DNA of 55,979 nucleotides, filler included, from Jimgerdemannia flammicorona (taxonomy: Eukaryota), in assembly GCA_003990765.1 (NCBI GenBank). It is 3 parts of 3 records of this genome, joined end to end, with 100 filler letters (N's around TTAATTAATTAA, not from the genome) between each part and the next. Parts side by side here need not be neighbours in the genome. Positions count along the whole stretch, not along the records: positions 18,698 to 37,291 come from RBNJ01002168.1; 2 more parts are not named here. One strand, written 5' to 3'. The notes under the pieces were generated by a model that saw nothing but the letters and a program-made list of their open reading frames with translations, was not told where the DNA came from and made no database searches. The translations under genes and the position numbers were made by a program. Below are positions 5,516-55,199 of the stretch, piece by piece; within the stretch, counting starts at the first letter, position 1, and each line of letters opens with the position of its first letter.

Positions 5516-6717
5516 CACCCCTTTCTCCACTACCTTACCAGTCACAAGGTTTGGTAGGCAATCTTCCAAGTCCCCTTTCCCCTATTATTACCCCCTCTAC
5601 CTTGGGTTAGTTTGCTGTGCCTGTATGGACATAGTGGAAGGAGGGCAATGGTGATAAGTTGCCCCTTTATCAGTGTCCAATCAGTGTCTTTTCCAATTTT
5701 TCGTAGTTTCTGGTACCTTCAGCTGTATCTGGAGTACATCCATTTTGGTGTGGCACCTTCTTCCTTTTGCCATCACCAACAAGGTGCTGCCTCAGTGCAT
5801 CATGAGTTACATAGAGAGTCAGTTGACCTTGAGCATCAAGTACTCAGTGTAGGTTATCTGTAGGTCCTTGGTACCTGTGGTGGGGCCCTCTGGCTTTGGC
5901 AAGCTTCCCAGCAAGTGCAGTTCTGGTGTAGGTGACTGTTTTTTGGATGTTGTTGGGATGAGAGGAGAGATGGCCATCACAGATAGGAGGATGAGTGATA
6001 ACAGTGAACCAGTGGGGTACTAGGCTGGGGGCAGTCATTGGGGCTAGGGTGGACAATATTTTGGTGGGGCCTTTCAATTGGCTAGTAGAGGGTGGGGTAG
6101 TGCAGGGGCCAGCATCCTGGCTGTACCCAACTGGAACCAGGAGCTGATGTGGCAATGTGATCGAGACCCACAGGCTTGGGGAGTGGGGCCTTCCTCATTT
6201 GGCAGTACCCGACTAGAACCAGGAGCTGATATGGTAATGTAATTGAGGCCCACAGGCTCAGAGAGTGGGAGTGGGGTCTTTTCAGGCCCTAGCCCATATG
6301 TAAGTCCTTTGAGGAAGGTGCTGCATATAGGTCCTTTACTCACCCACTTTGAATCCACTTTGCTCTCTGTTGGTTAGTTGGGGGGTTTTTTCTTTGCCTT
6401 GGGCTTTCTTTTGGGGTTCAGGGGGCTATTCTTTATTCAGTTCTGGTGCTGCTAGATCTGACACATAGGTGTGCTCTTATGTGTAAATGATGATCTAGCC
6501 CTAGTGAGCAGACAAGTCTAGTCTATGTTATTGGAGTCGATATAGCTGGTGTTCAACAGGCATAGCTGGAGTAGTGGGACTGCTGGATAATTTAGTAGCC
6601 TAGGTTAATGGGGGGATATTGTTCAGTGGGTGGTGGGGGAGAGTTTTGGCCTATATAGTCTAGGTTCCCTTTCAATAAAAATCTGCAGGACTATAAGTCT
6701 GTTAAAAAAAAAAAAAA
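5516..6717 (+). mobile_element. ~1.2-kb non-autonomous poly(A) retroposon, copy 2 (variant middle)
   Basis: TSD AAGATATATCTA(C/T)CACT at 5499-5515 and 6718-6734; same 5' and 3' ends as copy 1. Confidence 0.9.
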
Positions 6718-7654
6718 AAGATATATCTATCACTTATAAAATAAACCAGAGAATTGACCAGTATCTCTAGACCCTTATTCTCAGCTTCTTCTAAGCTCTA
6801 TCAGTTTTCTTATCTCAGTTTCAAGAAACTAATGAGACCCATCTTCAATATATTTAGATATATAAAAGAAACCTTACCTTAATAGAATACTTATTATAAA
6901 TTCACTAACTACAGATCTCTAATATATAATTAGCCAATTACTGTAAAACCTTTCAGCCCTAGAACAGATCTGCATTTATAATACTACTGGTCTATCTTGA
7001 AATAATACCATTGCTGTAAACAAACTCTATATAATCTATAGATAAAATATTACAATACTGACTTAGGCTCAGTTTGCTCTAAATAACTTCTAGAAAATAA
7101 CTATCTCACCTATCTGAGTATTATCAATTATCTTGAAGTTCAGTTCTCTGAAAAAGAAAAAGAGCCACTAGAATAAAGTGATTCAGATATAGAAGAAGAT
7201 AATAGTATAGGTATAGATGCTAAAAATATCCATAGTATCATATAGTGGTCACTGAGTCCTTCAAATATGCTAGATTCTCTTCAAGGTATATCTCTTAGAC
7301 TAACTCAAGTTTGTTATAAGCAAGTTCTTATTGGAGTGCCTTCTCAAGGTCTTATAGTCCTCAAACTTCTTATCTTTAACTGTCTTGTTATCTTTTAGAT
7401 TACTTGTAAGAGATTGTATATAAGTGAACCAGAACTGACTTTATTTCAGAGAAAATAAGAGGGGTATTTATACAAAATATAATTCAATGATTGCTAAGAT
7501 ATAAAGCTAAATATAAATTCTAATAACTAAAATAAAATGCCAGGATAGGAAAAACTGCTAAGTTCCAGAGTTGGCACTGATAGTTGTACAGGTTCAGGAT
7601 ACTGGTATAATTTCAGTAGTACAGGAAAATAGTGCTGAAATAATTCAGTGTTAC

Positions 7655-7792
7655 ATCAGAATACTAGTGCTGGCATTATTTAGTATTATATCAGAATGCT
7701 GGTGCTGACATTATTCAGTATTACATCAGAATACTGGTGCTGGTATTATTCAGTATTACATCAGAATGCTGGTGCTGGTATTATTCAGTATA
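7655..7792. repeat. Four 35-bp tandem repeats in family-A U3 (also at 14891-15028)
   Basis: Unit about ATCAGAATGCTGGTGCTGGTATTATTCAGTATTAC, between the LTR ORF stop and the TATA element (minus-strand GTATAAATACCCC at 7461-7473). Confidence 0.9.
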
Positions 7793-7802
7793 ACCAAGAG
7801 AC

Positions 7803-8618
7803 TTAGAGCAGAATGTTCAGGACCATGGGGGCTTCATTCTCATCATTACTGAAGGAGATGAGATCCGCAAATTCATTGTCATTGTGTAGGTCACATGTTT
7901 TGTATACTTTGATATCATATGGGATAATATCAATGCTGATAATGTCATCATGTTCAGTGGTGGCAGGAAGGAGGTCTGGGGCTCTCCAGTCTATGAGATT
8001 CTCTTCTATGAAATAGGAGACAAATGTGGGGTCTTGGAGAGGTCTAACCTGGATGCTTGGGCCTTAGAATACTGAGATCAATCCTTGCAGGAATTGGTCT
8101 GGGCTGTCCTGGAGGATGGGATGCCAGAAGTCTTCTACTTCATCACTATTGAGGGTAATAGTAGACTGAGCTTCTGTAGCTATCCTGGTTTCTAGTATAT
8201 TGATATGGTGGGATAACAGGTCTCTGAAATCTGAGACTCTAATATACTCCAAGTTAGAGATTGACCATAGTACATGCCTGAAGATCTGATGGATCTTCTT
8301 AGCTGTCCTTGCTTCACATATGTCCATAGGAGTGGCATCTTGTAACTCTTAGGAGCTGGTCTGTAGGAACTTCTGGTAGAGGAGATTTCCTATTTTATAC
8401 TTCTACTATATTTGAAGGCATTCAGTAGCAATGGTGATCCTTGTTTCCATTTCATGGCAGTAGAGGATATAATAATAGGAGTCACCAGTACTCAGGTTGA
8501 TACCAGGAGTCCTTCTTGAGTGGGTCCTCATGGCTCTTCTGATGTCTTGAAATATCCTTTCTTTGACTGAGATGTCTTAGTAGTTCCTTGACCTTGAGGT
8601 TTGGCAAGCAGTAGGTAT
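7803..8618 (-). pseudogene. Family-A LTR-encoded accessory ORF, 3' LTR copy (~270 codons, internal stops)
   Basis: Colinear with 15039-15838; MDICEARTAKKIHQIFRHVLWSISNLEYIRVSDFRDL. Confidence 0.75.
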
Positions 8619-14472: not shown

Positions 14473-16080
14473 TGTCATGTAGTGGTCACTGAGTTCTTCA
14501 AATATGCCAGATTCTCTTCAAGATATATCTTTTAGACTAACTCAAGTTTGTTTTAAGCAAGTTCTTATTAGAGTGCCTTCCCAAGGTCTTATAGTCCTCA
14601 AACTTCTTATCTTTAACTATCTTGTTATCTTTTAGATTGCTTATAAGAGATTGTGTGTAAGTGAACCAGAACTGACTTTATTTCAGAGAAAATAAGAGGG
14701 ATATTTATACAAAATATAATTCAATGGTTGCTAAGATATAAAGCTAAATATAAATTTCAATAACTAAATAAAATACCAGGACAGGAAAAACTGCTAAGTT
14801 CCAGGGTCAGCACTGATGGTTGTACAGGTTCCGAATGCTAGTATAATTTCAGTGGTATAGGAAAATAGTGCTGGAATAATTCAGTGTTATATCAGAATGC
14901 CAGTGCTAGCATTATTCAGTATTATATCAGAATGCCAGTACTGGTATTATTCAGTATTACATCAGAATGCCGGTGCTGATATTATTCAGTATTATATCAG
15001 AATACCAGTGCTAGTATTATTTAGTATAACCAAGAAACTTAGAGCAGAATGTTCAGGACCATGGGGGCTTCATCTTTGTCATCACTGAAGGAGATGAGAT
15101 CTGTGAATTCATCATCATTGCATAGGTTGTGCATTTCACATACTTCAATATCATGCAGGATGATATCATCATGTTTGGTGGCAGTGGAAAGGAGGTCTGG
15201 GGCTCTCCAGTCTATGAGATTCTCTTCCACAAAATAGAGGACAAATGTGGGGTCTTGGGGAGGTCTAACCTGAATGCTTGGGCCTTGGAATACTGAGATC
15301 AATCCTTGCAGGAATTGGTCTGGGTTGTTCTGGAGGATAGGATGCTAGAAGTCTTCTACTTCATCACTATTGAGAGTGATAGTGGACTGGGTTTCTATAG
15401 CTACCCTGGTTTCTAGTACATTGATACAGTAAGATGACAGATCTCTGAAATCTGAGACTCTAACATACTCCAAGTTGGGGATTGACCATAGTGCATGCCT
15501 GAAGATCTGATGGATCTTCTTAGCTATTCTTGCTTCATGTATGTCCATGGGAGTGGCATCTTGTAACTCTTGGAGGCTGGCCTGTAGGAACTCCTGGTAG
15601 AGGAGATTTCCTATTTCATACTCCTGCCATATTTGAAGGCATTTGGTAGCAATGGTGATCCTTGTTTCCATTTTACAGCAGTAGAGGATATAATGATAAG
15701 GGTCACTAGTACCTAGGTTGACACCAGGAGTCCTTCTTGAACAGGTCCTCATGGCTCTTCTGAGTCTTGGAATATCCTTTCTTTGACTGAGATATCTTGG
15801 TAGTTTCTTGACCTTGAGGTTTGGCAAGCAGCAGACATTTCATTTGTGGTAAGTCTTTGAGCTATTTTGGGATTAGTGGGTCTTATTGGTTACTGCTACT
15901 GTGGTTCCTTGATCCTTCTTTTATATTCCTCAAGATATCTATACTGTGGTCACAATGACTCACAGTTGGTCATCATTACTCATCTCATATGCCATATGAT
16001 CTTCTTGTGCTCTGATCTGATAGTTTGTAAGGAAAGGCTGTCTTCTGTACTAATGTCATCATTCTGGAGTCACTGTTATA
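14473..16080 (-). repeat. Family-A 5' LTR (1608 bp)
   Basis: Ends ...TGACA before the PBS; direct repeat of 7236-8860. Confidence 0.93.
15039..15838 (-). pseudogene. Family-A LTR-encoded accessory ORF (~266 aa reconstructed; one 1-nt deletion and one TAG)
   Basis: ATG at 15838; restoring the base present in the two other LTR copies joins MSAACQTSRSRNYQDISVKERIFQDIRRAM to ORFs 15345-15827 and 15039-15302; acidic C-terminal tail. Confidence 0.8.
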
Positions 16081-17025: not shown

Positions 17026-17423
17026 ACTATGAGACCTGTTGGAATATTGATTAACAACTCAATATATGATAGTTCAGTATATTCTATATTATATTATTAT
17101 ATAAATATTATTAATTTTTGATATATAAAAGTATATATACTAATATTAATAAATAATACCCTTTATCATTCTGTCAATTACCTTTCTCTAGTACTATTTA
17201 CATTATATAAATATCTTTCAATACTTTTCACATAGTCTTTAGAGAAAAGATACTAGCAATATAGCAATATATAAGAGTTCTGACAGATATACTAGATTAG
17301 GTGAATTTGGGGCCTTTAATTGGTAATATGTTGGGAGAGATTATAGTATAGAAATGGGGTTTTTGATAGTAAAGGTGGGTAAGGAGGGCCAGGCAGAGGT
17401 CAGCTACTAGGTATAGATAGAGA

Positions 17424-18597: not shown

Positions 18598-18697
18598 NNN
18601 NNNNNNNNNNNNNNNNNNNNNNNNNNNNNNNNNNNNNNNNNTTAATTAATTAANNNNNNNNNNNNNNNNNNNNNNNNNNNNNNNNNNNNNNNNNNNN
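18598..18697. other. Assembly spacer N44-TTAATTAATTAA-N44
   Basis: Artificial 100-nt linker with stop codons in all frames. Confidence 0.97.
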
Positions 18698-20343
18698 GAG
18701 TCTGAGATTCTGAGGTCTGGGGGAGGGGGTATTTATACTAGTGAGGGGCTATCTGGACTATACTGAATATGGATATAGCACTAAGTGCCTTGCTGAGTCG
18801 AAATGCAGTCACGTAGTATAAGTGTGATCTGATATGTCAAGGGATCGTCTGACTGCTGAGTCAGTTCACAGTCACGTCGTACAAGGCTAATCTATCTATA
18901 CTATGACTGCTAGACTATTTATAGGTTTAGGCACTATCTGGGTAGTCTTCGATGACATCACCATCGATTGCATCATCTCTGATGAAGTAGTCGTCTAGGA
19001 AAAGTGGTTTGCGGATTACTTCTCCTTGTTGGCTGAGGTAATAATACATTGGAACTTCATCTCCATCCCACAGGATAGTATCATCTGTTTCGTATGCTGG
19101 ATAAGGTGTTGGTGGGTGAAGAATGGGTGTACTATCTTCGCTTTCATCGGATTCGCTATCTGCATACCTTCTATAGGTTACAGCACTATGAGTCGCGGGG
19201 TTGTAGTAAGCTGGCGGCTGTGATTCAAGTCGCTCATACTCAGGTGGTGGAGTGGTTGGTTCAATCTCGAGAGTTGTCTGAAGGTACAGGTTGTGTTCTC
19301 CGGTCTCTTCATTGTAGTTGAAGTAATCGGGGATGAATGTGGGTTGGTATTCGTACCAGTGGTCATTGTCCCAATAAGTCTCGTATGCAGTTATGAACTG
19401 TTGTAAGTTCATTGGCAAGGTTGGCAGAGTGATCAGGGTTGGCAGAGATCCTTGGCTAGAGGTCATGTCGGCGTCAGAGGGGTCGTTGTCTTCTGCTTCG
19501 TCTTCATCGAAGTGGATTATATCATAGACGTCCTTCATGGCGTATCCGACTTGAGGCATTTGCAGGATATGGTAATCAGGGTGCGGGAAGGTTCTGTCTG
19601 TGGTTTTGACATACTCGAGGTACTTGTGGTTGATTTCTTGTATCATGTCATCGATTTGGCCGTAGGACAGGGTAGCAACCATTTTGCTGGTAGTGACTCG
19701 GAGGCGGGGAATAAAGGTGTTGTACTCATAGAAGAGTTCTCGATTTTTGCAGGCGATGAGCTTCTGGTGTTGAGACATCTGGGTAATGTCTGTATCATGG
19801 TGGTGTTCGACCATGTCTTCCAGGAGGCAGCTGATCTGGTAGTAGCTTGAGATTTGTCCGATTCGGTAGGCCTCGCTAAGCATGTTCAGGGCGTTCCATC
19901 AGGCTTCCACGAAGTAGAGGGGGGCCAGGCTATGGATATTCATGAGGGGCAGAGGGGGTGTGGCTCAGTTGACAATGGCATTCCAAATGTCAGTGCGGAT
20001 GCAGTTGTAGATCTCAGTAGTCATGTTTGTGTGTTTGGAAGTTGTGGTTGTTGTTTGTTTTGGTTCTCTGACTTGACACGTCTCGGTGCTCAGTATATAT
20101 GCATTTGGTCCTGATTGGTAATGTTCCATTTGTGTAGATCTTGTGTTCCGTGACTTCGTATTGACTCAGCTTTGTGTGCTGTGACTTCGGTTTGACTCAG
20201 CTTTGTGCGCTGTGACTTCGGTTTGACTTAGCTCCATGATCAAGCAGGTGATTTCCAGATTTGTTCGGAGGTCGCATGTGATTTCAGTGGCTTGTTCAGA
20301 GGGTGACGTATAATTTCAGTGGCTTGGGGGTTGTGTGCTTACA
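18698..20343 (-). repeat. Family-B LTR (5' or solo, cut by the gap), inserted antisense into a family-B integrase
   Basis: Reverse complement of 21301-22850; starts TGTAAGCACAC at 20343 with no PPT upstream. Confidence 0.92.
18927..20024 (-). CDS. Family-B LTR-encoded accessory protein, copy 1 (365 codons; the 318 aa at 18927-19883 remain open)
   Basis: 1098 nt, same length in all three LTR copies; two TGA in the first 42 codons; helical N-terminal domain plus acidic, Pro/Tyr-rich tail. Confidence 0.8.
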
Positions 20344-20875
20344 CAATCTAAGCCAGATTGCAATTGAGAATTTATCATGAGCTCAAGAACAACAATCACA
20401 GTATGTTAACCAACACTGCCGAGAAGAAACTTTTGATATTGGAGAAAAAGTTCTACTGGACATCAGAGGATACCGAGTTGACAACCTCAAGCACAGACCA
20501 TCTACAAAGCTGAACAGCAAGTTCATTGGACCATTTGAAGTCATTGCACACGTATCTCCAACCTCCTACAAACTGGCGCTACCAGACACCATTAAGATTC
20601 ATCCAGTCTTTAATGTTCAACATCTCAAGCGATACAATGACAATGATGACAAGCTATTTCCAAATCGAACCACCAAACCACCTGTACCTGTCACCATTAA
20701 TAACTAAGAAGAATACGAAGTTGAACAAATCCTCAAAAAACGTGGTAATAAGAACCATCCCGAGTACCTTGTCAAATGGAAAGGTTACCCGATCCACAAT
20801 ATAACCTGAGAACCCAAGACCAATCTCCAGAATGCTACCGACCTAGTTCAGGAATATGATTCCTTGAACAACTAG
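20344..20875 (+). pseudogene. Family-B integrase C-terminus with GPY/F motif and chromodomain
   Basis: KLNSKFIGPFEVIAHVSPTSYKLALPDTIKIHPVFNVQHLKRY; EEYEVEQILKKR...EYLVKWKGYP...T*EPKTNL. Confidence 0.92.
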
Positions 20876-21300
20876 AACCAAATACCCTGCATCTATCTGT
20901 ATATACTATATATTATCCTCCTGAACATTATAACTATCACGAACCAAATCAAGAACTCAGCAAAACAAGACAAGAATACCGACCTCTGGAAAAAATAGCA
21001 AAACTGAAAGCAAGCCTATTCTCCCTGTACCACTGGTGGGAAACGAGGTATAGACATTTAAGAAGATTCTTTAGAGGAAATTCTCCAGCAGTGAATGACA
21101 TCAGAATCACTTCCGGTGTACGGCATTGAACACATGACCCTTTAATGTATAAATCCAACACGTTAGGCAACTATACTATGAGCATGCCACTTTCTGAGAA
21201 AATGGACCTTACCAGACTTTTGACCTCCCAAACGATGTAACAACACTAGAACAAATTAGAAGGCCCCGACGAGGACATCGAAAGCTAAAAAGAGGAGAGT

Positions 21301-23301
21301 TGTAAGTGCACAACCTCCAAGCCACTGAAATTACACATCACCCTCTGAACAAAGCCACTGAAATTATACGTGACCTCCGAACAAATCTGGAAATCACCTG
21401 CTTGATCACGAAGCTGAGTCAAACCAAAGTCACAGCGCATAAAGCTGAGTCAATACGAAGTCACAGAACACAAGATCTATACAAACGGAACCTTACCAAT
21501 CAGGACTAAATGCATATACTGAGCACCAAGATACGTCGAATCAGAGAACCAAAACAAACAACAAACCACAACTTCCAAACACACAAACATGACCACTGAG
21601 ATCTATAACCGCATCTGCACTGACATTTGGAATGCCATTATCAACCGAGCCACACTCCCTCTGCCCCTTATGAATATCTATAGTCTGGCACCCCTCTACT
21701 TCATGGAAGCCTGATGGAATGCCCTGAACATGCTTAGCGAGGCTCACCGAATCGGACAAATCTCAAGCTACTACCAGATTGGCCGCCTCTTGGAAGACAT
21801 GGTCGAACACCACCATGATACAGATATTACCCAGATGTCTCAACACCAGAAACTCATTGCCCGCAAACATTGAGAACTCTTCTATGAGTATAACACCTTT
21901 ATTCCCTACCTCCAAGTCACTACCAGTAAAATGGTTGCTACTCTGTCCTATGGCCAAATCGATGACATGATACAAGAACTCAACCACAAGTACCTCGAAT
22001 ACATCCAGACTACAGACAGAACCTTCCCGCACCCTGATGACCACATCCTACAAATGCCTCAAGTCAGATATACCATGAAGGACATCTACAATATAATCCA
22101 CTTTGATGAAGACAAAGCAGAAGACAATGATCCCTCTGACGCTGACATGACCTCTAGCCAAGGATCTCTGCCAACCCTGATCACATCGCCAAACTTACCG
22201 ATGAACTTGCAACAGTTCATAACTGCATACGAGACTTATTGGAACAATGACCACTGGCACAAATACCAACCCACATTCACCCCCGATTACTTCAATTACA
22301 ATGAAGAGACCGGAGAATTCAACCTATACCTCCAGACAACCCTAGAGATTGAACCAACAACCCCACCACCTGAGTATGAGCGACATGAACCACAGCTGCC
22401 AGCTTACTACAACCCTGCAACTCATAGTGCTGTAACCTATAGAAGGTATGCAGACAGTGAATCCGATGAAAGCGAAGACAATACACCCATCCTTCGCCCA
22501 CCAACACCTTATCCAGCATATGAAACAGATGATGCTATCCTGTGGGATGGAGATGAAGTCCCAATGTATTACTACCTCAGCCAACAAGGAGAAGTAATCC
22601 GCGAACCACTCTTCCTAGATGACTACTTCATCAGAGATAATGCAATCGATGGTGATATCATTGAGGACTACCCAGATAGTGCCTAAACCTATAAATAGTC
22701 CAGCAGTCATAGTATAGTTAGATTAGCCTTGTACTACATGACTGCATTCCGACTCAGCAAGACACTTAGTGCTACATCCATATTCAGCATAGTCCAGATA
22801 GCCCCTCACTAGTATAAATACCCTCTCCCCCAGACCTCAGAATCTCAGACTTGAACAATCCGAACACAACTCCTGAGCACTTCCCCACAATATCCCTTCA
22901 TATAACTACTCCTAGTATAGCAATATCATGAATAGCGAATAAACCTATTTAATAACCCACAAACCACTCTTAAGTAAATCCGCTCCCCGTTAGGTCCTAC
23001 TTCTAACCCCGTCATGAAATTTCCTAATTGGGTATTGTCTGCAGTGATACGCCAATTCAACTAAGCTAGTCTTAGTTTCTTGAACTTCCTGAAATACGGA
23101 AAATCCTGAATATCCAGAACTAGTCCAGAAAAGGACTTTGGTTGAGACGTCAACCCAATCTTGAAATCAATAAGTATAGAGGATGTACTCCATATGAAAT
23201 TGATCTTGACCATAAGAAAACGGTCTTCCAGAACATCCAGAATATCCAGAAAACCCTTTCAGAACTACGTAATGGTCACCCTAAAAAGTAACCCTCTTAC
23301 A
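21301..23301 (+). repeat. Family-B 3' LTR (2001 bp)
   Basis: PPT AAAAAGAGGAGAG immediately upstream; TGTAAG...CTTACA termini; TATA-like GTATAAATACCC at ~22812. Confidence 0.93.
21589..22686 (+). pseudogene. Family-B LTR accessory ORF, copy 2
   Basis: 1098 nt in one frame with two TGA; YYQIGRLLEDM...IARKH*ELF. Confidence 0.8.
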
Positions 23302-29000: not shown

Positions 29001-31538
29001 TTAGTTTATTCTCTGGTTCTGATAGTATTACTTGGTTGGGCTTTGCATCTTGTTTCAGTTATGCAACTCTTTATATAGTAGCCTTCTTCTCTATATCTAA
29101 AGTATGTAATATTATATTCTTCTATAGCAACTGCAAATCTCTGTACTGATCTTCTGTTGGTACTTCAGACTTCTCAACAACATTACCAAGATGTACAGTC
29201 ATCTCAGCAAACTGCTTGGTGAGTTCCTCTACTGGATTAGCTTTGGCTGTCTTGGAGATAGATAGGGATGGTTATCTGTTTACAACTATAGTAGGTATGA
29301 TATTAGTTGACTTTGATGGCTCTATCTTGATACTAGTTATTTTCTCTATTGAGTATTCAGCAGAGTGTCTGACAGTCCAATATCTCTATGTAAAGACCAC
29401 TTTCTGGTCAAGGGTCAGAGCAGCTGGGGTAGACTGGATTGCTAGGACAATTTCAGGGTAAACTTCTTTGAGGAAGGTTTAATCTGCTATATGTTCCTTG
29501 AAGCCAAGATAATCTGGTGGCAGATTCAGGTGTAGAATAAGTTGGGATCTTCACTGAGTCTCTGGCAGATAGTGTTGAGTTAATCCTTGAGAGCTTGCTT
29601 AATCTCTTCAGTATAGTATATATATAGTTCTGAGGAAGTTCTTCATGTTGGCCAGTTTAGCTGCACTAGTATCAACAATGGTAACTATATTGAACTTGTC
29701 TCTGGTGGATCCTCTGAGGCTGACACAATTGTATATCCATGGTAAGGGCTTATATGGCAGCAAATTGTTCAAAGTCTTCAATAAAGATCAGAATTGACTC
29801 TTCAGTTATATATCCATAGAATGTAGGGGGACACATTTCCATCTTATTTTAAATTCTTACAAGGGTAACTCTTATAGTCAGGGTAGTTATTATGGTGATT
29901 ATTCATTTTTCAGCTTAAAAGTGAGGAATTTATCTTGAATCACCAGTCAATGAGTACCAAGTTATCATATAGTAGTTGCTGAGTCCTTCAAATACATCAG
30001 ATTCTCTCTAAGATATATCTCTTAGACTAACTATAAGTTTGTTATAAGCAAGTTCTTATTGAAGTATCTTCTCAAAATCTTATAGTCCTCAAACTTCTTA
30101 TCTTTAAACTGCCTTATTATCTCTTAGATTGCTTGTATAGAATTGAGAGTAAGTAAACTAGAACTGACTTTATTTCAAAGGAAATAAGAGGGGTATTTAT
30201 ACAAAATATAATTTAATAGTTACTAAGTTATAAAGCTAAATATAAATTCCAATAATCAAATAAAATATGGAATATAGAAAACTATAGTTGTAAGTACAAG
30301 TTTAAGTGTCTGTACAAATGGTTGCATAAGTCCAGAATGCCAGTAGAATTTCAGTAGTATAGGAAAAGGATATCAGAAGAATTTCTGAGTTATGCAAGAT
30401 CAGAATACTAGAAGAATAACAATTATATAGAAAAAGGATGCTGGTAGAATTCAGTGTTATCAAAAACTTAAAGCAGAATGTTTAGGATCATGGGGGCTTC
30501 ATCTTCATCACTATCATTAAGGCCAGAGGTCAGAGATAAGATATCTTCAAAGGGCAAATGTTTTGTATTTCACATATATTACACAGGATGATGTCATTGC
30601 TGATGATATTATCATAAGAAGTATCATCTCATTTAGCAGTAGCAGAGGCTCTCCAATCTATAACATTCTCTTCTATAAAATAAGGAACAAATATGGAGTC
30701 TTAGAGAGGTCTAATCTAGATACTAGGGTCTTGGAATACTGAGATCAATCCTTACAAGAACTGATCAAGATTGTCCTCAAAGATGGGATTCCAGAACTCT
30801 CCTATCTCATTACTATTAAGAGTGATAGTAGACTGGACTTCTGTGATCACTATAGCCTCCAGTGCATTGGTATAGTGGGCTGACAGTTTCTTGAAGTCTG
30901 AGATCCTAGTATACTCTAAGTTAGGAATCAACTATAGTATATGTCTGAAGACCTGATGAATCTTCTTTACTATCCTTATTTCACATATATCCATAGAGAT
31001 AGTATCTTGAATCTCCTGAAGACTGGCCTGAGAGAATTTCTAGCAGAGGAGGTTTCCTATTTTATACTTCTACCATATCTAGAGGCATTTGATAGCAATA
31101 GTAATCCTTGTTTCTATTTCATAGCAGTAGAGGATATAATGATAAAGGTTGCCAGTATCTAGGTTGAGGCTAGGAATCCTTCTTGTGTAGATCCCTATAG
31201 CTCTTCTGATGTCTTGGAATATCTTTTGTTAGACTGAGAGATCTTGGTGGTTCCTGGACCTTAAGGTTTGGCAAGCAGCAGGTATTTTATTTATAGTAAG
31301 TCTTTAGAACTATTTCTGTGAGTTTTGTTTGGATTGCTACTACTGCAGTTTCTTGATCCTTCTTTTATATTTCTTTGGATGTCTGTCTTATGATCACAAT
31401 AACTCATGGTTGGTCATTATTGCTCATCTTGTAGTCTGAATGAGTTATGCTATATGATCTTCTTATGCTCTAATCTGGTAGCTTATAAGGAAAAACTGTT
31501 CTCTATACTGATGTCATTATTATAAAGTCACCATTATA
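26025..31538 (-). mobile_element. Second family-A element (5' LTR 29963-31538, gag, PR, dUTPase ~27350-27773, RT, part of RNase H); more decayed, cut by family C
   Basis: Colinear with 10560-16080. Confidence 0.92.
30468..31285 (-). pseudogene. Family-A LTR accessory ORF, third copy (divergent subfamily)
   Basis: Colinear with 15039-15838; many stops. Confidence 0.7.
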
Positions 31539-32189: not shown

Positions 32190-32895
32190 ATAATGGGTGC
32201 TAAGTTCTCCAAGTATGTCAGATTCTCTTCAAGGTGTATCTCTTAGATCAACTACAAGTTTCTTATAAGTAAGTTCTATTAGAATACCTTCCCAAGATCT
32301 TATAGTCCTCAAACTTCTTATCTTTAAACTATTCTGTTGTCTCTTAAATTTGCTTGCTTAGAATTGAGTAGAGGGCTGGAACTTCTGTACTTCTGAGTAG
32401 TTAGGGACTTGAGTATTTGAATACTTGACTACTGACTACTGACTTTATTTTAAAAGAAATGAGAGGAGTATTTATACAAAATATAATTCAATGGTTGCTA
32501 AGTTATAAAACTAAATATAAATTTCAATAACCAAATAAATAAGGTACTTGAATACAGAAAACTTCAGTTATAAGTATAAATTTGAGTGTCTGTACAATTG
32601 GTTATATAAGATCAGAATTCTAGAAGAATTTCAATAGTTATGCAAGATCAGAATGCTGAAATAATTCCAATAGTTACATAAAGAACTCAGAGCAGAATAT
32701 TCAGAATACTGGAGACTTCATCTTCATTATTATTATCAAGGCTAAAGGTCAGAGACAGGATGTCTTTAAAGAAAATGAGGTCAGTGAATGTTTTATCTAT
32801 CTTATATATTTCATATATATATTTCATATATATTATATAGTAGTGGGATAATATTATCATATTTAGCAGTAGCAGAGAGAAGAGTAAGAATCCTC
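32190..32895 (-). repeat. Partial family-A-like LTR (U5/R/distal U3), interrupted by the LINE
   Basis: Similar to 29970-30650. Confidence 0.8.
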
Positions 32896-35800
32896 TTATC
32901 AGATAGGGTCCAGTCTCAAGAGGTTAGGTGGCAGAGGATGTACTAATACATAGTGCCCAGTAAGTGTACTTTGGAGTTCCTGAGGTAGTGAAAGGGAAAT
33001 AGGTAGTAGTAGTTGGTGAGGATAAACTAATGGATGTCCTAGAGGAGGAGTGGGATGAGACTGCAAGTGTTGGAGCTGATACCTTGATGTTGGGGGAAGG
33101 GAGACCAGTGACTCTAGATGAGAAAGAGGTGAGAAATATACAATGGATGTACCAGATGATGAATAACTTAGTGGCTGAGAAGCTGAGAGAAGTAGACCTG
33201 AGGGTGATGAGTGATGATCATTAAGTATAAATCTTATATAGAGATGGAGTGGTGGAGGCCCTGAAGGTAGAGGTGCTTGTAGTTTTCTTGAAAGAAAAAG
33301 GATATGAGATCAATAAATAAGAGAGACAGAGCTAGTGATTGTTGCTAGTGAGTGGGCTGCCCTCTAGTGGGCAGAGAGATATGGGCTATAGCTCTGACAG
33401 AAGGGCTGCTTGGAGTATCATAAGAACTTTGAGAAAAAGGAGGATGGAGAGCTAGCTAAACTACTGGTTTGATTGGAGGCAAAGAGGGTTAAAATAAAGA
33501 AAGTGACTATTGAACATAACTTAGACTTGGCACAGAAGAAGATAAATATAAAGTTGTAGAGAATATACTTACCGTTCAACATTACTTCTTATGAATAGTA
33601 TAACCAATATTTTTTCTTTAAATATAAATGGGCTATAGGGATCAGTTTGATGTTATAACATTTTTACTTAGCTAAAGAGATTGGAGGCTGATCTCTTTCT
33701 TTTACAGGATGTTAGATGTAAAGATGACTTGAATAGACTAGAATAGATAAAGGAATGAAGAGGTGAGATAGTTTGGAAGGACAAGGTTGGAATCCTGGTC
33801 TAGAGAGGCAGAGAGGAGATATAAAATATGAGGAGCTAAGAAGACAGGCTGGTTTGGGGAGAGTGGATTTGACCAGGTTGAGAGCCAGTTACAGTGAGTT
33901 TCTACTACTACCCTACTGTATAGAGTGAGCAAGTGGAATAGGTGAAGGGACTCTAGAAGAGTGGGGTCCTTATAGAGGCTGGAGTGGACATTCTTGGAGA
34001 GGACTTTAATATAGTCTGAGATATGCTAGTAGATAGGACTGACAGAGGGCAGGGGACTGAGTATTGGAGTAGAGGTCTGGAGATGTAAGAGGAAGTGAAA
34101 AGGCTGAGCTCTCTGATGGATGCTGGCAGGGAGTTCTGGAGAGACAAGAGGGTATATACATATATACTAAGCAAATAGTCTGGGGATGAGGATTGACTGA
34201 GTGCTGATGGCAGACTGCTGGGGTTTAGATATTTGAAAGTCACTAGAGGCTGAGTGGTATCTATAGTTTAATCATTAAGGGCTGTTGAGATAGGGTCATT
34301 TTGGGGAGAGTGGGGATAGATCTGGACATTGGTACTTTAATTCCTCTTTGTTGACTAAGAAGATGTTGTAGGATAATTGAGTTGTGGATATTCAGTAGAG
34401 AGTGGAGAGTTGGGTATAGAAGAGTGCTCTAGTTAGTGTCCAATGGGTAAGGTTGAAGAAGGCTACTAAGGTTTATTGGAGAGAGGCTGGAAAAGTGGCA
34501 GAAAGGCAGAGGAGAAAGAGGGTGTCTTGGGCCTCAGCTAGATTGGCTGGGCTTTTGGAAAATTAGGCAGGTCTTTTGGTCCTGGAGAGAGCAGAGGACT
34601 AGAGATTAATGTGGGCTAAGCTGGAGGTTATAGAGTTATAATAGGTATTGAGAGAGGAGGAGATACAAGTATAGAGTTTGGTGATACAGTTATACTAGCA
34701 GGGGCTAGATGAGAGAGAGAGGTCCTCTAAGTATCTTTTAAGAATCCTTTGGGCAAGGAGAGTGAGACAGAGATGGGAGAGGGTACTAAATTCTGATGAT
34801 CTATTAGTATATAGTCTATAGGACATTCTAGGCTCATTGAAGGAGAGATAGAGTAGTTTGTAGAGTGAGGAGGAGGGTGGGGCTGATGCTGTCACCATTG
34901 AGCATACTTTGGAGAATTGGTACCTACTGTAAGTAGATGGGCTGGACAGCTTAGTGATACCAGTACAGGAGGAGAAGATTCATTAGATTCTTGCCACAAC
35001 TATGCTGAGCACAGCACCAGAGAGGATGGTCTGCTCTGGGACTTTTGAAAGAAGATGGTAAAAGTCTCTGGAGTGCTGAGAGAGATGATAGCACTTTGTA
35101 ACTTGGTACTACAGTCAGGGAGGTGAGTGGGTGAGCAGGATCTAGAGCTGGTAGTACTGCTCTATAAAGACAAGGGCAGGAGAGAGGACTGGAAGAACTG
35201 GAGGCCTATTATGCTTCTGGACATAGATAGAAAGTTGGTAACTAAGGTAGTGGTAACAAGACTATAGAAGGTGGTTCAGCAAGACTTGTGAGGTTTTGTA
35301 GGGGGCCAGCTCATTAGGGATGATATAGTTTGAGTGCACAGCATCATTGAAGAGGCTTGAGTCTGTAGACTGAATGGGAGATTAGTCTTCATAGATCAGG
35401 AGAAGGTATATAACTATGTTCAGTAGATCTAGTTGGTGAATACTGGATAGGATTGGTGTCCCTCAGTATTTCCAAGTAATAATGATCAGTTTACTAGAAG
35501 GGAGTAGAGTGGTGCTTATATATAATGGGTATTAAGAAGTGGTATTTCCTCTGAGTAGAGGTGTTTCCCAGAGGGACCCACTGTCTCTTATTTTGTATGC
35601 TCTATCCTTGAAGCCATTGATGGACAGAATTCAGCAGAAGATAGAGGAACCCTCAGTATTTAGAATTGTGTAGAAAGTTGGGGCCTTTGTGGATAATATA
35701 GTGGTTGATCTGAGATTGATTACTGATGTTGAGGAACTTCAGAAAATGGTAGAGTAGTTTGAGGTGCACTCTAGGGCTAAACTCAACTGACATAAGTATG

Positions 35801-49036: not shown

Positions 49037-51113
49037 AGTAATAGCAGTTATAATCTGGAGTTCTTTGAGCAGATTACTAGACTGAACAACAGACCAGCTT
49101 AGTAGTGCTTTCAATATAGCTATTGTAATGTAGCAGACACTTACTCTTGAAAGTATGTCGGATTTCTATATCTTGAAAACTTGATCTTCTCTGACTCCTC
49201 AGAGTCCTTTGAGTTGCAGGGGAGGGTGGGTGAGTTCGAAGTGTATCTGCCTGCAGGCTTACTAGTTCCTTTGCTATCTCTTTGCTTTGAACTATTTCAA
49301 TCTGAGGTTTATTCACTCAAAGATACTGAGTTATTTATACAAGTTTGCTAGCTATGAGATGGTTACTGAGTTACGTGGCTAAGTTATGAATCATTTAACA
49401 CTTTGCAAAATATTTCACCAGTTGCAAAATGCTATACTATATTGAGAAGCTCGATCTTGCACTTTGTGAAATATTTAGCAAATGGCAGAATCGAGGACTG
49501 CTAACTATGTGGCTATACTACTTTGGGACTGGGTGCGATCAAGTGTCTGTTCTCTATTTCCTTCTTCCAAATCTGGCTATACCATTACAACTTCCTCCTG
49601 AATAGATGATCTTATCCCTAAAGCATCTATTCAAACTCTCAAGCTTCAATGGTCTGTATGGTCTTGTATTGTGCAATTTGTTGTATTACTGTTTCCCAAT
49701 GGTATCATCTGACTTGATCGAAGTCTGAGGGAGTCACTCCTTGCAGGTGGGCTAGTGCTGATTCATCCTCTTGGAATAGCTTGTAGATTCTCTTAGCAAT
49801 GGTGATCTGGGAATAGGAGAGCTGACATTCTGTGATCCAATTTTCTTTGGTCATTTCTGGGTCTTGGTTGAGTACTTGGCCAAGTTTGAAGTACTCTTGA
49901 AATTCGTTTCGATGCTGATAGGCTTTAAAGTGTGAGATTCGAGAGAGATGAGTCTATATGATGCTTTGGATACTGTCATAAGACTCCTCTATGGTCAGAG
50001 GCTTGGTGGTGCACTATTGTCTCTTGATGGCTCTTTGGGCAGTACTAGTGATCTTGAGTGCCATCGCAGTACTTTTGTTACTAGTTATTATATTTCTTGA
50101 GTCAGTTTCAGTGAATGGTGGTGGAGATTATTGTGCCTGAGAGTTTTCATAGCCAAAAGGTAGTCTCTTTTATATCTTGCACAAGGTAAGGTTCTTCCCA
50201 CTTGGGCTCCAGTTTTCGTGACCATGAAGCTTCTACTATATTCCAATATACCAGGACTTTGTCTCCTATCTTAATAATCTCTGAGGGTTTGTGGGTCTTT
50301 TTTGCATTCCTCCATTATAGTGTCTGCGCCTTGGTTATGTAATTCTCAGCCTTCTTCCTGATTTGGTATAGTCTCCATATTTCCATGTCCATGCATTTCC
50401 ATATAGCATCTCCATTGGATGATAGGGTTCCCTGAGAACATTCTTCTCTGAATAGTATTTCTCGAGGGGTAAAGTGGATATTTTGTGATCAAATATCCTG
50501 GAGAGCAGATAATGCTATTGGCAGATAGTGATCCCAGTTCTCATAGTTATCGCAGATCTTGGCTATAATATTCTTGAGGGTTTTGTTGGTCCTTTCTACT
50601 TATCCATTTCCTTGAGAGTGATATGCTGTGGTCTGAATATGCTGGATCTTGTACTTCTTGTAGAGAACTTTGAAGAACTGATTCACAAATTCTGTTCCTC
50701 TATCTGTAGTTACTTGTGTGGGGGTCTTGAACCAGCAGATGATTTCCTTGTAGAAGAAATCAGTGATTGACTGTGCATTGGCTTCCATAAGGGGTCCTGC
50801 TTCTATCCATTTTGTAAAAAGGTCTATGATGACAATGATGTATCGGTTGCCAGTCAAAGTCAAGGGTAGAGGGCTGATTACATCCATTGCAATGTGGGCA
50901 AATGGTACTGGTTCTATGTATGCTGATCCTGGGGCTCAATTTTGTTGGTCTTGTTTCTGTTTCTAGTATTTGTCACAGGTCTTGACGAATTGTCTGATAT
51001 CTTCCTCCATCCCTGGCCACCATATTGTTCTTCTTGCCTTATCATATGTATTTGTTCCTCCTAGATGGCCAAGTTCATGTACTGATTTCATCACTTGCTC
51101 CTTCTTGTGTTCT
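49037..51113 (-). mobile_element. Family-D Ty3/Gypsy 3' part: integrase (50160-51113), accessory ORF, PPT, short 3' LTR (~49037-49589)
   Basis: HELGHLG..WWPGMEEDIRQFVKTCDK, IDLFTKWIEA, TDRGTEF, KLEPKWEEPY; PPT AGGAGGAAG then TGTAATGG. Confidence 0.88.
49627..50064 (-). pseudogene. Family-D accessory ORF between integrase and PPT (146 codons, four internal stops, no frameshift)
   Basis: MALKITSTAQRAIKRQ...EFQEYFKLGQVL...LSYSQITIAKRIYKLFQEDESALAHLQGVTPSDF. Confidence 0.75.
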
Positions 51114-51398
51114 TGTAAGCACACAACCTCTAAGCTACTGAAATTATATGTCACCCTCTCAACAAGCCACTGAAATCATATGCGACCTCTGAACAAATCT
51201 GGAAATCACCTGCTTGATCATGAAGCTGAGTCAAACCGAAGTCACAGCGCACAAAGCTGAGTCAATATGAAGTCACAGAACACAAGATTTACACAAACAG
51301 AATCTTACCAATCAGGACCAAATGCATATATACTGAGCACTGAGATGCATCAAATCAGAGAACTAAAACAAACAACTACAACTTCCAAACAGACAACC

Positions 51399-52496
51399 AT
51401 GACCACTGAGATCTATACCTGTATCTACACTGACATTTGGAATACCATTGTCAACCGAGTTACATCCCCTCTATCCCTCATAAATATATATAGCCTAGCA
51501 CCCCTCTACTTCATGGAAGCCTGATGGAATGCTCTGAACATGCTTAGCGAGGCTCACCGAATCGGACAAATCTCAAGCTACTACCAGATCGGCCACCTCC
51601 TGGAAGACATGGTCAAACACCACCATGATACAGACATTACCCAGATGTCTCAACACCAGAAGCTCATTGCCCGCAAACATCGAGAACTCTTCTATAAGTA
51701 TAGCATCATTATTCCCTACCTCTGAGTTACCACCAGCGAAATGGTTGCTACTCTATCCTATGGCCAAATTGATGACATGATACAAGAAATCAATCACAAG
51801 TACCTCGAGTATGTCAAAACCACAGACAGAACCTTCCCACACCCCAATGATCACATCCTGCAAATGCCCCAAGTCGGATATGCCATAAAGGACATCTATG
51901 ATATAATCCACTTCGATGAAGATGAAGCAGAAGACAATGATCCCTCTGACACCAACATGACCTCTAGCCAAGGATTTCTGCCAACCCTGATCACTCCACC
52001 AACCTTGCCGATGAACTTACAACAGTTCATAACTGCATATGAGACTTATTGGGACAATGACCACTGGTACAAATACCAACCCGCATTCACCTCCAATTAC
52101 TTCAACTACAATGAAGAGACCAGAGAACACAACCTGTACCTCCAGACAACCCTCGAGATCGAACCAACCACTCTACCACCTGAGTACGAGTGACATGAAC
52201 CACAGCCGCCAGCTTACTACAATCCTGCAACTCATAGTGCTGTAACCTATAGAAGGTATACAGACAGCGAATCCAATGAAAGTGAAGACAATATACCCAT
52301 CCTTCATCCACCAACACCTTATCCAGTCTATGAGACAGACGATGCTATCCTGTGGGATGGAGACGAAGTTTCAATGTATTATTACCTCAGTAAACAAGGA
52401 GAGGTAATCTGCGAACCACTCTTCCTAGACGACTACTTTATCAGAGATGATGCAATTGATGGTGATGTCATTGAAGACTACCCAGATAGTGCCTAA
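51399..52496 (+). pseudogene. Family-B LTR accessory ORF, copy 3
   Basis: 1098 nt in one frame with three TGA stops. Confidence 0.8.
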
Positions 52497-55199
52497 ACTC
52501 ATAAATAGCCTAGCAGTCATAGTATAGTTAGATTAGTATTATATGATGTGACTGTGAACTGACTCAGCAGTCAGATGATCTCTTGACATGCCAGATCACT
52601 CTTGTACTATGTGACTGTATTCCGACTCAGCAAGGCACTTAGTGCTACATCCATATTCAATATAGTCCAGATAGCCCCTCACTAGTATAAATACCCCCTC
52701 CCCCAGACCTCAGAATCTGAGACTTGGATACACAGAACATTTCTGAACACTTCCCCACAATATCCCTTCACACAACTACTCTTAGTATAGCAATATCATG
52801 AATAGCAAATAAATCTATTCAAATAACCCACAAACTACCCTTAAGTAAATCTGCTCCCTGTTAGGTCCCACTCCTAACCTCGTCATGAAATTTCTTAATT
52901 GGGTACTGTCTGCAGCAATATGCCAATTCAACTAAGCTGGTCTTAGTTTCTTGAACTTCCTGAAATACAGAAATCCTGAACATCCAGAACTAGTCCAAAA
53001 AAGAACTTTGGTTGAGACATCAACCTAATCTTGAAATCAATAAGTATAGAGGATATACTCTATATGAAATTGATCTTGACCATAAGAAAATGGTCTTCCA
53101 GAATATCCAGAACTTCCAGAAAACTATTCTAGAACTATATAATGGCTACTCTAAAAAGTAACCCTCTTACAACTTAGTAGTAGTGGTTTACAATCCAATT
53201 CCACTTTAAGATGCTTCCTCACTCTGCTACAAACCCTTCTGAGAATTCCTACAATTTGGTATAAAGCCCAACCTCTGAACTGGAATTTATCCTGAACTAT
53301 CTGACAATCTGGAGAGAATTGAACCTGACGTACAAGGACAATTTGACCTCCACACCTGCAACAAGTGGGATAAACTTCATTCAAAGAAAGAAGTACTCTG
53401 GTTAAACTAGCAAATAGGTGAAACCTATTCACTGAACTCCTTGCACTACACCCAGTAAGTCAAGATAAAGAAGGTCTTATTGAAGCCTTTTTTACTCTTC
53501 TCAATAAGAGTTTTGTCAGCTCCATAAATCTGAGTGACCTAGAACAACCAGCAGCAGTCTTTCTAGCCTTAGTTCCTCACGAAGCCCAAAGCCTCTGTAG
53601 CCAAGTGGCTCAACTCTACCAACTTTCACCATACCAGGACCAAGACCGCATTATACTACTGATTCCAGAACAGCAAGGCCCACCATATCCTTAAAGAAGA
53701 AGTAAGAGAAACCCTTCATCAACTACCTGACCCTGAACCTGAAGCAGGCTCTGCTACAGCCCTACCTGAATCTGAAATGCAAACCGAACCTGAACTTGAC
53801 TTTGAATTAAGCCCATCTGAAATCAGATATACAACTGATTCCGTCTACTTTGAAGCTGAGCAAACCCAATTACATGGGGACCAAACTGAAAAAGAGGAGG
53901 AGTATCTCAGTAAATTCAATCCCAGATATACCACCGAAGAAGAAGTACCCCCATCAGGACAGAATACACCTACACAGCAACAAACAGTTACCTATCAAGC
54001 CCTCACTCCAGACCCACAACTACTACTTCAGCAACTTACCCAGACCTAAAGAACCCCATCACACTCTGCACCAGTACCTCAAGTAGTACCAGTAACACCA
54101 CTACCAGCAGTCCAACCACCTCTAGCAAACAATATGGCAAACCAACAGATTCTTGATCTCACAGCCCAAGTAGCTATAATGGCAGAAACCATTACTGCCT
54201 TAGCTGAACAGATCCGATCTACCAAAAATCTGAGCCTACCTACCTTCAATGGTATTGCACAAGAAGTCCAAAGCTTCATTAGTATAGTTGATACCAACTT
54301 TGAAGCCAATCAATGGACAAATGAGCAAGTTGCCGACTGTGTTCTGACAAACAATCAAGACCACACTCTGGAATAACTCTTTGCTACTACTACAGCCTAT
54401 GTCTGCCAAGTTGTTACATTCTTCCGAGGATCTCCCAAAGAATGGTGGTGAACCCTTCCTGAGAAACCCCTCACATGGGATACCCGACCTGCAGTAGTTG
54501 CTCAGAATGTAGCAAACAATGCCCCAGGATATGGAGTCCATCCTGCAGCATCTGGACTTAAACAACTCATGATTGCTCAATACCATAGTGAAACCATGAT
54601 TGCCGAATCTTGAGTAAAACTCCACAACCTCAAATTTGATATACATGACAAAGAAGAATTCGAAACCTTCTATACAAAACTCAAGTCACTCCTGAACACT
54701 ATTGGCCTAGGATATATTGCCAATGATGAAGCATGAAATGGTACAAGAGCAGACTATTTATTCAATGCCCTGCCTGAATGGCTTACTAGAAAAATCCGAG
54801 AACAAGGCCACCCAGTTGGTTGTGATCACCAACAATGATGCCTGGCAAGAATCAAGACCATGGTCAAGTGAATCCTAACAGCCAGACCAATTCTGCCCCG
54901 AAGACAATTCAACAACAAGGAAAGGACTTGGACTAAGAAAGAAGAACCCAAGCATGAAACATCCTGAGCTCCCTCTACATTCACCTCTTGGACACCTAGA
55001 AATCATGAACCCACCCAGCCAAGTACCTTCAATAAACTCACTGAAGGTGAAAGAAATGATCTTCGAAGAAGTGGAGTATGCTTCTATTGCCGAAACACAG
55101 GATACATGGCCAGTGCCTGCCCTAACCAAAAACCCCAAACAGCAACATGAGCAACTGTTACCACTCTGCACCACCTCAACAACCTGACCACCAGAACAC

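Follow-up and report, generated by a model that had tools for sequence, protein, structure and literature searches.

The window, i.e. the whole analysed stretch of 55,979 nt of Jimgerdemannia flammicorona DNA, contains Ty3/Gypsy (Metaviridae) elements with pol of the PR-RT-RNase H-integrase order, LTRs with TG...CA ends, polypurine tracts and a PBS-like site. RVP_2, RVT_1, RT_RNaseH, Integrase_H2C2, rve and SH3_Tf2-1 domains were detected by a Pfam scan of 150 out of the 151 stop-free segments that reach 70 aa or more. One of the families, B, is a chromovirus, whose pol ends with the integrase SH3 (PF24626, 20381–20704, plus strand) and Chromo (PF00385, E 8.4e-14, ~20714–20860, plus strand) domains. 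For family A, no Chromo domain was found in any of the three frames over 390 nt past pol, and its chromovirus status is not shown.

The ~2-kb family-B repeat is a true LTR with the termini TGTAAG...CTTACA, and each of its three copies holds, at an equivalent place, a 1,098-nt frame of 365 codons. The first copy (B1, 18698..20343, minus strand, 5′ end TGTAAG at 20343) is inserted within pol of a plus-strand B element and lacks its 3′ part, as it is truncated by the contig linker (N run 18598–18697); its frame occupies 18927..20024 (minus strand). The second one (B2, 21301..23301, plus strand, TGTAAG...CTTACA) is a 3′ LTR that comes after the SH3–Chromo end of pol and the polypurine tract (~21287–21299), with the frame at 21589..22686 (plus strand). 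The third (B3, 51114..53171, plus strand) is a 5′ LTR inserted within the integrase of a minus-strand family-D element, and a PBS-like site, gag and dUTPase (55319–55687) come after it; here the frame lies at 51399..52496 (plus strand).

The B frame begins 285–319 nt past the LTR start and ends 127–190 nt short of a conserved TATAAATA. Tandem ~31-nt repeats, each with TGAGTCA, precede it (51227..51264, plus strand, in B3, ~135–170 nt 5′ of the ATG; 21415–21452 in B2; 20162–20199, minus strand, in B1, where a third unit is present). On the 3′ side, B3 has TATAAATA at 52686–52693 and AATAAA at 52808–52813 (both on the plus strand), the same two motifs are found in B2 at 22813 and 22938, respectively, and the TATA motif of B1 is at 18730–18737 (minus strand). 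A TATA motif GTATAAATAYCCC, with at most one mismatch, is present in all six A and B LTR copies. Since the frame is upstream of TATAAATA and AATAAA, which mark the putative U3/R region, it is tentatively placed in U3. The earlier note had described an open reading frame in U3 of all three LTRs, and its position stands, with U3 assigned from these motifs, while its openness does not: none of the three B copies in the window is open, the in-frame TGA codons being at positions 20 and 42 in B1, 42 and 95 in B2, and 42, 109 and 264 in B3. There are no stops other than TGA, and CGA or Arg is found at these codons in other copies or in the database protein P0002. As the codon-42 stop is common to B1, B2 and B3, the B progenitor may have been defective beforehand, or translation may have begun at Met48.

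A comparable ORF is found inside the LTR of family A. In a complete element it is present in the 5′ LTR (14475–16073), at 15039..15752 (minus strand) with one in-frame stop and a true start that may lie ~29 codons further upstream, and in the 3′ LTR (7238–8853), at 7803..8531 (minus strand) with four in-frame stops. The LTR of a second, diverged A element carries the ORF at 30468..31198 (minus strand), without indels in the first 185 codons and with a frameshifted C-terminus. Moreover, a heavily decayed C-terminus of the A-type ORF (32279..33178, minus strand, HMM E 3e-4) is followed by a TATA-box motif at 32465–32477. The family-D ORF of 153 codons (49627..50088, minus strand) carries mutations in its start codon and in several other codons. 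It is located outside the LTR, after pol and before the polypurine tract, with the LTR boundary drawn from a single copy; both the ORF and the polypurine tract are upstream of the LTR start (TGTAATGGT, 49581–49589, minus strand), and the ORF start overlaps the pol stop (50081–50083) by 8 nt. A candidate stretch in family E (6600..7237, plus strand) is heavily mutated and without statistical support, as about 6600–7200 scores 2.6–5.2 bits, under the null maximum, and the membership of this family, proposed previously, is not upheld.

The conservation of the B frame is seen both in gaps and in substitutions. In the three-copy alignment we observe no gap runs in the 1,098 ORF columns versus nine distinct ones in the 1,000 other LTR columns; approximately 9.9 runs would be expected in the ORF at the flanking rate (P of zero about 5e-5), and the indel-free state of the frame noticed before is thus confirmed. 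In Logan contigs from four public runs, which cover the whole B ORF in all four, all listed indels (nine rows) and all three joints fall outside 51399–52496. Out of 159 singleton changes in the B ORF, 83 are synonymous (54.6 expected) and 76 non-synonymous (104.4 expected), yielding omega of about 0.48, a value matched in none of 5,000 simulations. The changes are distributed over codon positions 1, 2 and 3 as 54, 21 and 84, whereas the control frames have omega 1.32 and 2.38, so that the synonymous excess and the deficit at the second codon position are confined to the ORF frame. The B copies taken singly yield omega 0.39–0.55 (P 0.0008–0.008). As the two LTRs of the complete A element were identical at insertion, their divergence serves as an internal control for neutral decay (omega 1.23 and 1.60); the A copy of the other element has omega 0.58 (P 0.002). 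The accessory gene is under purifying selection, and the 365-codon frame of family B is, with high confidence, a real, selected gene.

With hhalign, the homology of the A and D proteins is established (probability 87.7%, E 3.4e-6, 105 columns). For B, comparisons with A alone (P 0.042) and with D alone (P 0.053) are marginal, and the merged A+D profile yields P 0.012 and a score of 25.2, exceeding all 118 column-shuffled controls (mean 14.1, SD 2.5, maximum 22.0). The HMM built from A and D recovers all three B copies among 1,116 six-frame chunks (E 0.002–0.011, with the top reversed-sequence score of 7.4 bits as the null), while with either family on its own the HMM scores for B do not exceed the null maximum. 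A, B and D fall in one register in the MAFFT alignment, the same by every method, and the C-terminal parts of B do not align with those of A and D. Given that B and A share only 43% identity even in their dUTPases, an accessory protein retained at 20–25% identity is plausible. On these alignments, B is probably homologous to A and D, by a link weaker than that between A and D, with P-values near 0.01. Out of the four Gypsy families to which the protein had been ascribed, A and D are retained firmly and B less so. A match of the B HMM at 4868–5005 (plus strand) was rejected as a false positive, as by eye it belongs to the C-terminal portion of an integrase.

Intact homologues of all three types are encoded in other contigs: P0001 (247 aa, 64% identity) and P0002 (128 aa) for B, P0004–P0010 for A (60–77% identity, P0004 with 97% query coverage), and P0011–P0018 for D. 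Among 1.84 billion representative proteins the B query has three matches, two being the same ORF and one a weakly matching repeat protein; the latter, P0003 (436 aa, tandem repeats, E 6.5e-4, six stretches), was discarded as a low-complexity match. Two scans of JGI metagenome contigs returned 74 and 188 pattern matches, none of which encodes a relative, and the ESM Atlas yielded no usable match for the B protein and, with a pol fragment, only dUTPase clusters. No Pfam family was found at E ≤ 1 for any of seven B-, A- and D-type proteins, which leaves the resemblance to DUF3102/DUF1016-N suggested in the earlier note unsupported, and the B ORF pieces among the scanned stop-free segments have no Pfam matches. 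In PDB sequences, the best E-value was 0.06 with the A profile (an asparaginase) and 0.92 with the D profile, both taken as chance, and fold searches with the D-type model produced no significant match. The protein therefore corresponds to no described LTR-element domain in these three kinds of search and is an orphan without any known domain. The sparse trace of the family in databases likely reflects the gene being located in mutated LTRs and skipped by gene callers.

These data bear on three alternatives to a shared accessory gene. If the frame were not a gene but had arisen by chance in an LTR that is young and of biased composition, stops in every copy would be natural; this is close to refuted by the synonymous excess and second-position deficit solely in the ORF frame, by the exclusion of indels, and by intact homologues at 60–77% identity. 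A more serious alternative is that the B ORF is unrelated to those of A and D, the families having gained orphan genes independently at one 3′ position, with a chance likeness of the N-termini. The marginal pairwise P-values, the failure of the A-only and D-only HMMs to lift B over the null maximum and the unalignable C-terminal parts are what this predicts, but the merged profile raises the score above the null maximum, its HMM finds every B copy above the null, the register is method-independent, and the ORFs agree in orientation and in where they lie with respect to the conserved TATA box; we regard independent origin as unlikely. The ORF could also be a piece of a host gene picked up by transduction, or else counteract host silencing, instead of serving the expression of the element itself. 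Retrotransposons are known to capture host sequences, as stated in PMC7264820, and the protein is an orphan. At the same time, the near-absence of matches among the representative proteins argues against capture, and one-off transductions would not recur, as the ORF does, in all copies seen and in diverged families, so that this explanation seems quite improbable.

In contrast, the data support a conserved, selection-maintained and previously undescribed Gypsy accessory protein common to at least A and D, with a weaker link to B. Its N-terminal domain of ~90 residues is conserved and helical, and is common to A, D and probably B. The modelled D-type core consists of three helices (pLDDT 74–83), while AlphaFold on the full B protein (five sequences) produced an unusable model with pLDDT 30.7. 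The 225-aa tail of B contains 48 D+E versus 8 K+R, 24 P and 32 Y/F/W residues, and the A tail is similarly long, acidic and rich in proline and aromatic residues; the D-type protein entirely lacks an acidic tail. PPxY-like motifs in the B tail were dropped from consideration, as they are not conserved in P0001. No transmembrane segment was found by 19-residue hydropathy in any of five proteins (top Kyte–Doolittle mean 0.77 in the B protein, 0.19–0.97 across all five), in line with the earlier view that the protein is not env-like. The combination of a helical N-terminal domain with an acidic, aromatic-rich tail suggests, with low confidence, a regulatory factor.

Overall, we favour, with some reservation, the reading that this is a decayed but real accessory gene of a dUTPase-carrying Ty3/Gypsy clade, acting as a regulatory factor. 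The gene follows pol and is read in the same direction. In D it is still ahead of the polypurine tract; in A and B the LTR begins before the gene, which is thereby copied into both LTRs and would wholly belong to U3. Its expression could depend on a promoter of its own within the initial ~290 nt of the LTR, possibly formed by the TGAGTCA tandem repeats followed by TATATA, or on a spliced subgenomic RNA, with AATAAA of the LTR as the transcript end. In the reading we prefer, the helical domain would bind LTR DNA or element RNA, and the acidic-aromatic tail would recruit host machinery in a transactivator-like manner. Such a mechanism is tentative and, taken by itself, unlikely, the more so as a common one is weakened by the absence of the tail in the D-type protein. 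Alternatively, the protein may act post-transcriptionally, like Rev, Rec or CERV of Cer1, binding unspliced element RNA and aiding its nuclear export or packaging, a function that a 3′ ORF would need if expressed by splicing. The arginine-rich N-terminus of the A-type protein and the subgenomic RNA implied by the 3′ location of the gene agree with this, and a Gypsy-type accessory protein with such a role has reportedly been published (PMC10309623). The N-termini of B and D, however, are not basic, and no known export factor resembles the protein in Pfam and PDB sequence searches, so that we consider this role doubtful, somewhat more so than transactivation.

Extending the regulatory reading, the LTR of A and B could be a self-contained cassette of repeats with TATA, ORF and polyadenylation signal, serving the family in trans. 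Every LTR, including solo LTRs, would then express a trans-acting factor for the whole family. The cassette might go back to a shift of the plus-strand priming site to a position upstream of an ancestral post-pol ORF, which drew the gene into U3 and doubled its dose, with D keeping the older arrangement. In D, the pol stop and the ORF start, overlapping by 8 nt, might instead permit termination–reinitiation. This extension is speculative, and we give it little weight.

Accessory genes set "complex" retroelements apart from simple gag-pol elements, and to our knowledge almost none has been characterised in fungal-type retrotransposons. Another extra gene of fungal Gypsy elements, brtn of Botrytis Boty-like elements, reportedly described by Zhao and coauthors in 2011, is said to be antisense, whereas the present ORF is sense. 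Among retroviruses, accessory genes in or overlapping U3 are MMTV sag (wholly in the LTR), HIV nef and foamy-virus bel/bet, and MMTV Sag is a type II membrane glycoprotein. As in these systems, the gene in A and B is 3′ of the polypurine tract and 5′ of the presumed LTR promoter, hence in both LTRs; it differs in having no sequence or fold similarity to them and in residing in a retrotransposon without env. A search of open-access full texts found no paper pairing "ORF within the LTR" with "retrotransposon", and among the matches listed for LTR-borne ORFs the sole relevant one was MMTV, with the phrase "LTR contains an ORF" occurring in a review (PMC9412291). Passages of Novikova et al. (2010, PMC2864245) describe fungal Gypsy elements with dUTPase at the amino-terminal side of Pol, some with an "add. 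ORF" whose function is left unexplained there; the likeness to our elements is in the Gypsy type, dUTPase and, for B, chromovirus status, and as the comparison is with text passages, it provides no sequence link between the "add. ORF" and this protein.

The closest described category is aORF-3S, the additional ORFs that LTR retrotransposons carry in sense orientation after pol and before the 3′ LTR (reviewed in PMC7264820). Like them, our ORF is sense, 3′ of pol, present in most family copies (3/3 B LTRs, 3/3 A LTRs plus one decayed A-type remnant, and 1/1 D), conserved like other element genes, and without a cellular homologue. The aORF-3S described there are mostly env-like, with transmembrane segments, from plants and insects, while the ORF studied here has no such segment, belongs to dUTPase-carrying Gypsy elements, and is wholly LTR-internal in two families. 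It is, then, a fresh variant of the known sense additional ORF 3′ of pol. The three families, with one gene now within and now outside the LTR, provide a natural experiment on how LTR borders shift and how a retroelement gene becomes LTR-borne, and if the protein does regulate LTR activity, it would offer a handle on the retrotransposition bursts that inflate such genomes.

Nested Gypsy-type elements, all heavily mutated, make up the stretch, and they include an accessory gene located 3′ to pol that has been under selection; in families A and B the LTR itself carries this gene. Among stop-free segments of 70 aa or longer, 150 of 151 were scanned with Pfam, which identified protease, reverse transcriptase, RNase H, integrase zinc-binding and core, and Tf2-type SH3 domains, as well as four separate dUTPase domains (11670–12578, 24281–24502 and 27200–27790, all (–), and 55319–55687 (+)), upstream of the protease wherever a protease is found. 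The accessible text of one study describes dUTPase-bearing fungal Gypsy elements and, in some fungal elements, unexplained “add. ORFs” (PMC2864245). By that study, the chromodomain (family B), the dUTPase upstream of the protease and the occurrence in soil metagenomes of the elements studied here would suit a fungal host.

Repeat families were delimited by self-BLAST. The family-B repeat is present in three copies: B1 (18698–20343 (–), with the 5′ end present, cut by a linker), B2 (21301–23301 (+)) and B3 (51114–53171 (+)). Ahead of B2 are a polypurine tract and the last part of a (+) pol, which contains SH3 and Chromo domains (E 8.4e-14 for the latter); after B3 come, on the same strand, a PBS-like site, several gag-like ORFs and a dUTPase. 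With one copy on the 5′ side of gag and another on the 3′ side of pol, the repeat is a true LTR; it starts with TGTAAG and, in complete copies, ends with CTTACA. Insertion of B3 breaks the integrase of a (–) element of family D exactly at 51112/51113.

All three copies share a 1,098-nt ATG-initiated frame beginning 285–319 nt into the LTR. Conserved TATAAATA is located 127–190 nt 3′ of its stop codon, with AATAAA approximately 120 nt further, and these motifs suggest a U3 of about 1.6 kb holding the entire ORF. The ATG is preceded by two or three units of ~31 nt in tandem, each with the heptamer TGAGTCA, which we take to be a putative AP-1/Gcn4-type site, and, in B1 and B3, by TATATA at a distance of ~65 nt. 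Hence the earlier claim of a gene in U3 holds for the frame, found in three of three LTRs, and for its position as read from motifs, while no copy is open (two, two and three in-frame stops). All the stops are TGA, and at each of these codons another copy reads CGA or the homologous database protein P0002 carries Arg. The TGA at codon 42 is common to B1, B2 and B3 (19962–19964, 21712–21714 and 51522–51524; Arg in P0002), reflecting either three independent CpG transitions or a progenitor with this stop that used Met48.

Four independent lines of evidence show that the family-B frame was a gene. In the three-copy alignment, gap runs are absent from the 1,098 ORF columns, as the earlier note had claimed, compared to nine distinct ones in 1,000 non-ORF LTR columns (about 9.9 expected in the ORF; probability of none ~5e-5). 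When B3 was compared with contigs of four public runs, three of them from soil metagenomes and one from a coded organism (3,419, 399, 55 and 349 aligned contigs; differences listed at a 20% threshold), all contig indels (nine rows) and joints (three) fell outside 51399–52496. From B3 to the commoner contig sequence we observe T>C at 82–88 places and A>G at 40–44; mostly B3 has T or A where the contigs carry C or G, indicating that B3 decayed via C-to-T and G-to-A transitions.

The dN/dS check proposed earlier was run on the three copies, with changes polarised by their majority and placed at random, under the null, among sites matched for base and CpG status. Out of 159 singleton changes, 83 are synonymous (54.6 expected) and 76 non-synonymous (104.4 expected), so that omega is approximately 0.48, the synonymous count being reached in none of 5,000 simulations. 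Changes at the three codon positions number 54, 21 and 84, and the other two frames of the ORF, used as a control, yield omega of 1.32 and 2.38. Single copies yield 0.39–0.55 (P 0.0008–0.008), and by region omega is 0.43 for codons 141–365 (0 of 5,000 simulations), 0.52 for codons 48–140 (P 0.026) and 0.61 for codons 1–47 (P 0.12).

A complete family-A element has LTRs at 7238–8853 and 14475–16073 (–), flanked, in our reading of the alignment, by a 4-nt CTAT target duplication. Identity between these LTRs is only about 89%, showing heavy post-insertion transition mutation. Both contain an ORF of 237–242 codons, starting ~320 nt past the LTR start and ending ~330 nt ahead of a TATA motif also found in family B; a third, more diverged copy is at 30468–31198. 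The true start may lie ~29 codons upstream of the ATG used, judging by P0005, a database protein. As an LTR pair is identical at insertion, its private changes are neutral and provide a built-in control: here omega is 1.23 and 1.60 (29 and 27 events), compared to 0.58 (101 events, P 0.002) for divergence from the other family-A element.

The family-D ORF (153 codons, 50088–49627 (–)) belongs to the element with the integrase that B3 interrupts. Its start codon position precedes the pol stop codon by 5 nt, and the 8-nt overlap (50078–50091 (–)) could allow termination-reinitiation. Next come a purine-rich tract and TGTAATGGT, with which the family-A LTR also opens, and then a TATA motif (two mismatches) ~250 nt further on; in this single copy the ORF therefore lies inside the element, between pol and LTR. 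In families A (8854–9290 (–)) and B (20876–21300 (+)), the interval from pol stop to LTR start measures approximately 400 nt and has no recognisable domain; the family-D ORF fills the matching space.

The fourth line of evidence for the family-B gene comes from intact relatives in databases: P0001 (247 aa, 64% identity) lacks stops, and P0002 (128 aa) shares the start codon. Beyond these, family-B searches yielded very little, with one match out of 359 candidates in a set of 5.8 billion proteins and three matches among 1.84 billion representatives, one of which, P0003, was discounted as a weak repeat protein. The family-A profile search retrieved 15 proteins, labelled “hypothetical protein” at most: seven A-type (P0004–P0010; 60–77% identity, several full-length and open) and eight D-type (P0011–P0018). 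The family-D ORF agrees in length and end with full-length P0011, and in end with P0014.

For copies from the stretch alone, similarity is weak and in constant register (A–B P 0.042, D–A P 0.012, D–B P 0.031). With database sequences added, profile comparison of ten A-type and nine D-type sequences yields a probability of 87.7% and E 3.4e-6 over 105 columns, by which the A and D ORFs are homologous. Family B is marginal against A or D singly (P 0.042 and 0.053) and scores 25.2 against the merged A+D alignment (P 0.012), above all 118 column-shuffled B alignments (mean 14.1, SD 2.5, maximum 22.0). Moreover, an A+D HMM built without any B sequence and applied to 1,116 six-frame chunks puts the three B copies at the top of its non-self matches (13.4, 13.3 and 11.2 bits, E 0.002–0.011; best reversed-sequence score 7.4 bits), and a joint MAFFT alignment places A, B and D in one register. 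The B and A dUTPases are only 43% identical, so identity of about 20% is expected for a fast-evolving accessory protein. Thus the family-B ORF is probably homologous to the other two. Sharing had been proposed for a fourth family, E; its stretch (~6600–7200 (+)), 3′ of a decayed (+) pol, scores 2.6–5.2 bits, under the null maximum, and is thus not supported as a member.

None of seven proteins has a Pfam family at E ≤ 1, so the DUF3102/DUF1016 likeness suggested earlier fails this test; PDB sequence searches gave chance-level matches only. As had been stated, hydropathy reveals no TM segment in the accessory proteins. The D-type model (21-sequence alignment, mean pLDDT 56.9) has helices at residues 40–75, 81–88 and 92–114 and a core, residues 60–115, with pLDDT of 74–83, with nothing significant in Foldseek (best E 1.2); the B model has pLDDT 30.7. 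In the 225-aa B tail, acidic residues outnumber basic ones by 48 to eight, and there are 24 prolines and 32 aromatics; the A tail is similar in composition.

The gene would be expressed via a subgenomic RNA or an LTR-internal promoter, and its product may have a regulatory role. We tentatively favour, as a reading still rather unlikely in itself, a transactivator-like protein in which a helical domain would bind nucleic acid or dimerise and an acidic-aromatic tail would act as effector; a role in RNA export or packaging is less probable, and a host-defence suppressor or captured host gene, taken together, quite improbable. The family-D protein consists of the helical domain without the tail, which counts against one shared mechanism.

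MMTV sag is a gene wholly inside U3, and the brtn gene of Botrytis is reportedly antisense. Phrase searches of open-access full text found no gene within U3 of a retrotransposon; additional ORFs in sense orientation that lie between pol and the 3′ LTR form an established class, described as mostly env-like in the accessible text of PMC7264820. Hence, with respect to open-access text, we class the protein family as undescribed and its position 3′ of pol as belonging to an already known class.

Two identical structures, 44 N, TTAATTAATTAA and 44 N (18598–18697 and 37292–37391), resemble artificial contig linkers that carry stops in every frame, and parts on either side therefore need not adjoin in the genome; the whole is probably a pseudomolecule. 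A GC-richer ~1.1-kb repeat, which has ORFs in either orientation and lacks Pfam matches, is present in four copies of 78–88% identity (3406–4574, 5518–6049, 17423–18589 and 42759–43791), two of them interrupting an AT-rich (+) element at 1–7200, and may be the LTR of a further family. The 44000–48000 block, with GC content of 21–23% compared to 31–46% elsewhere, is presumably an extremely decayed repeat.
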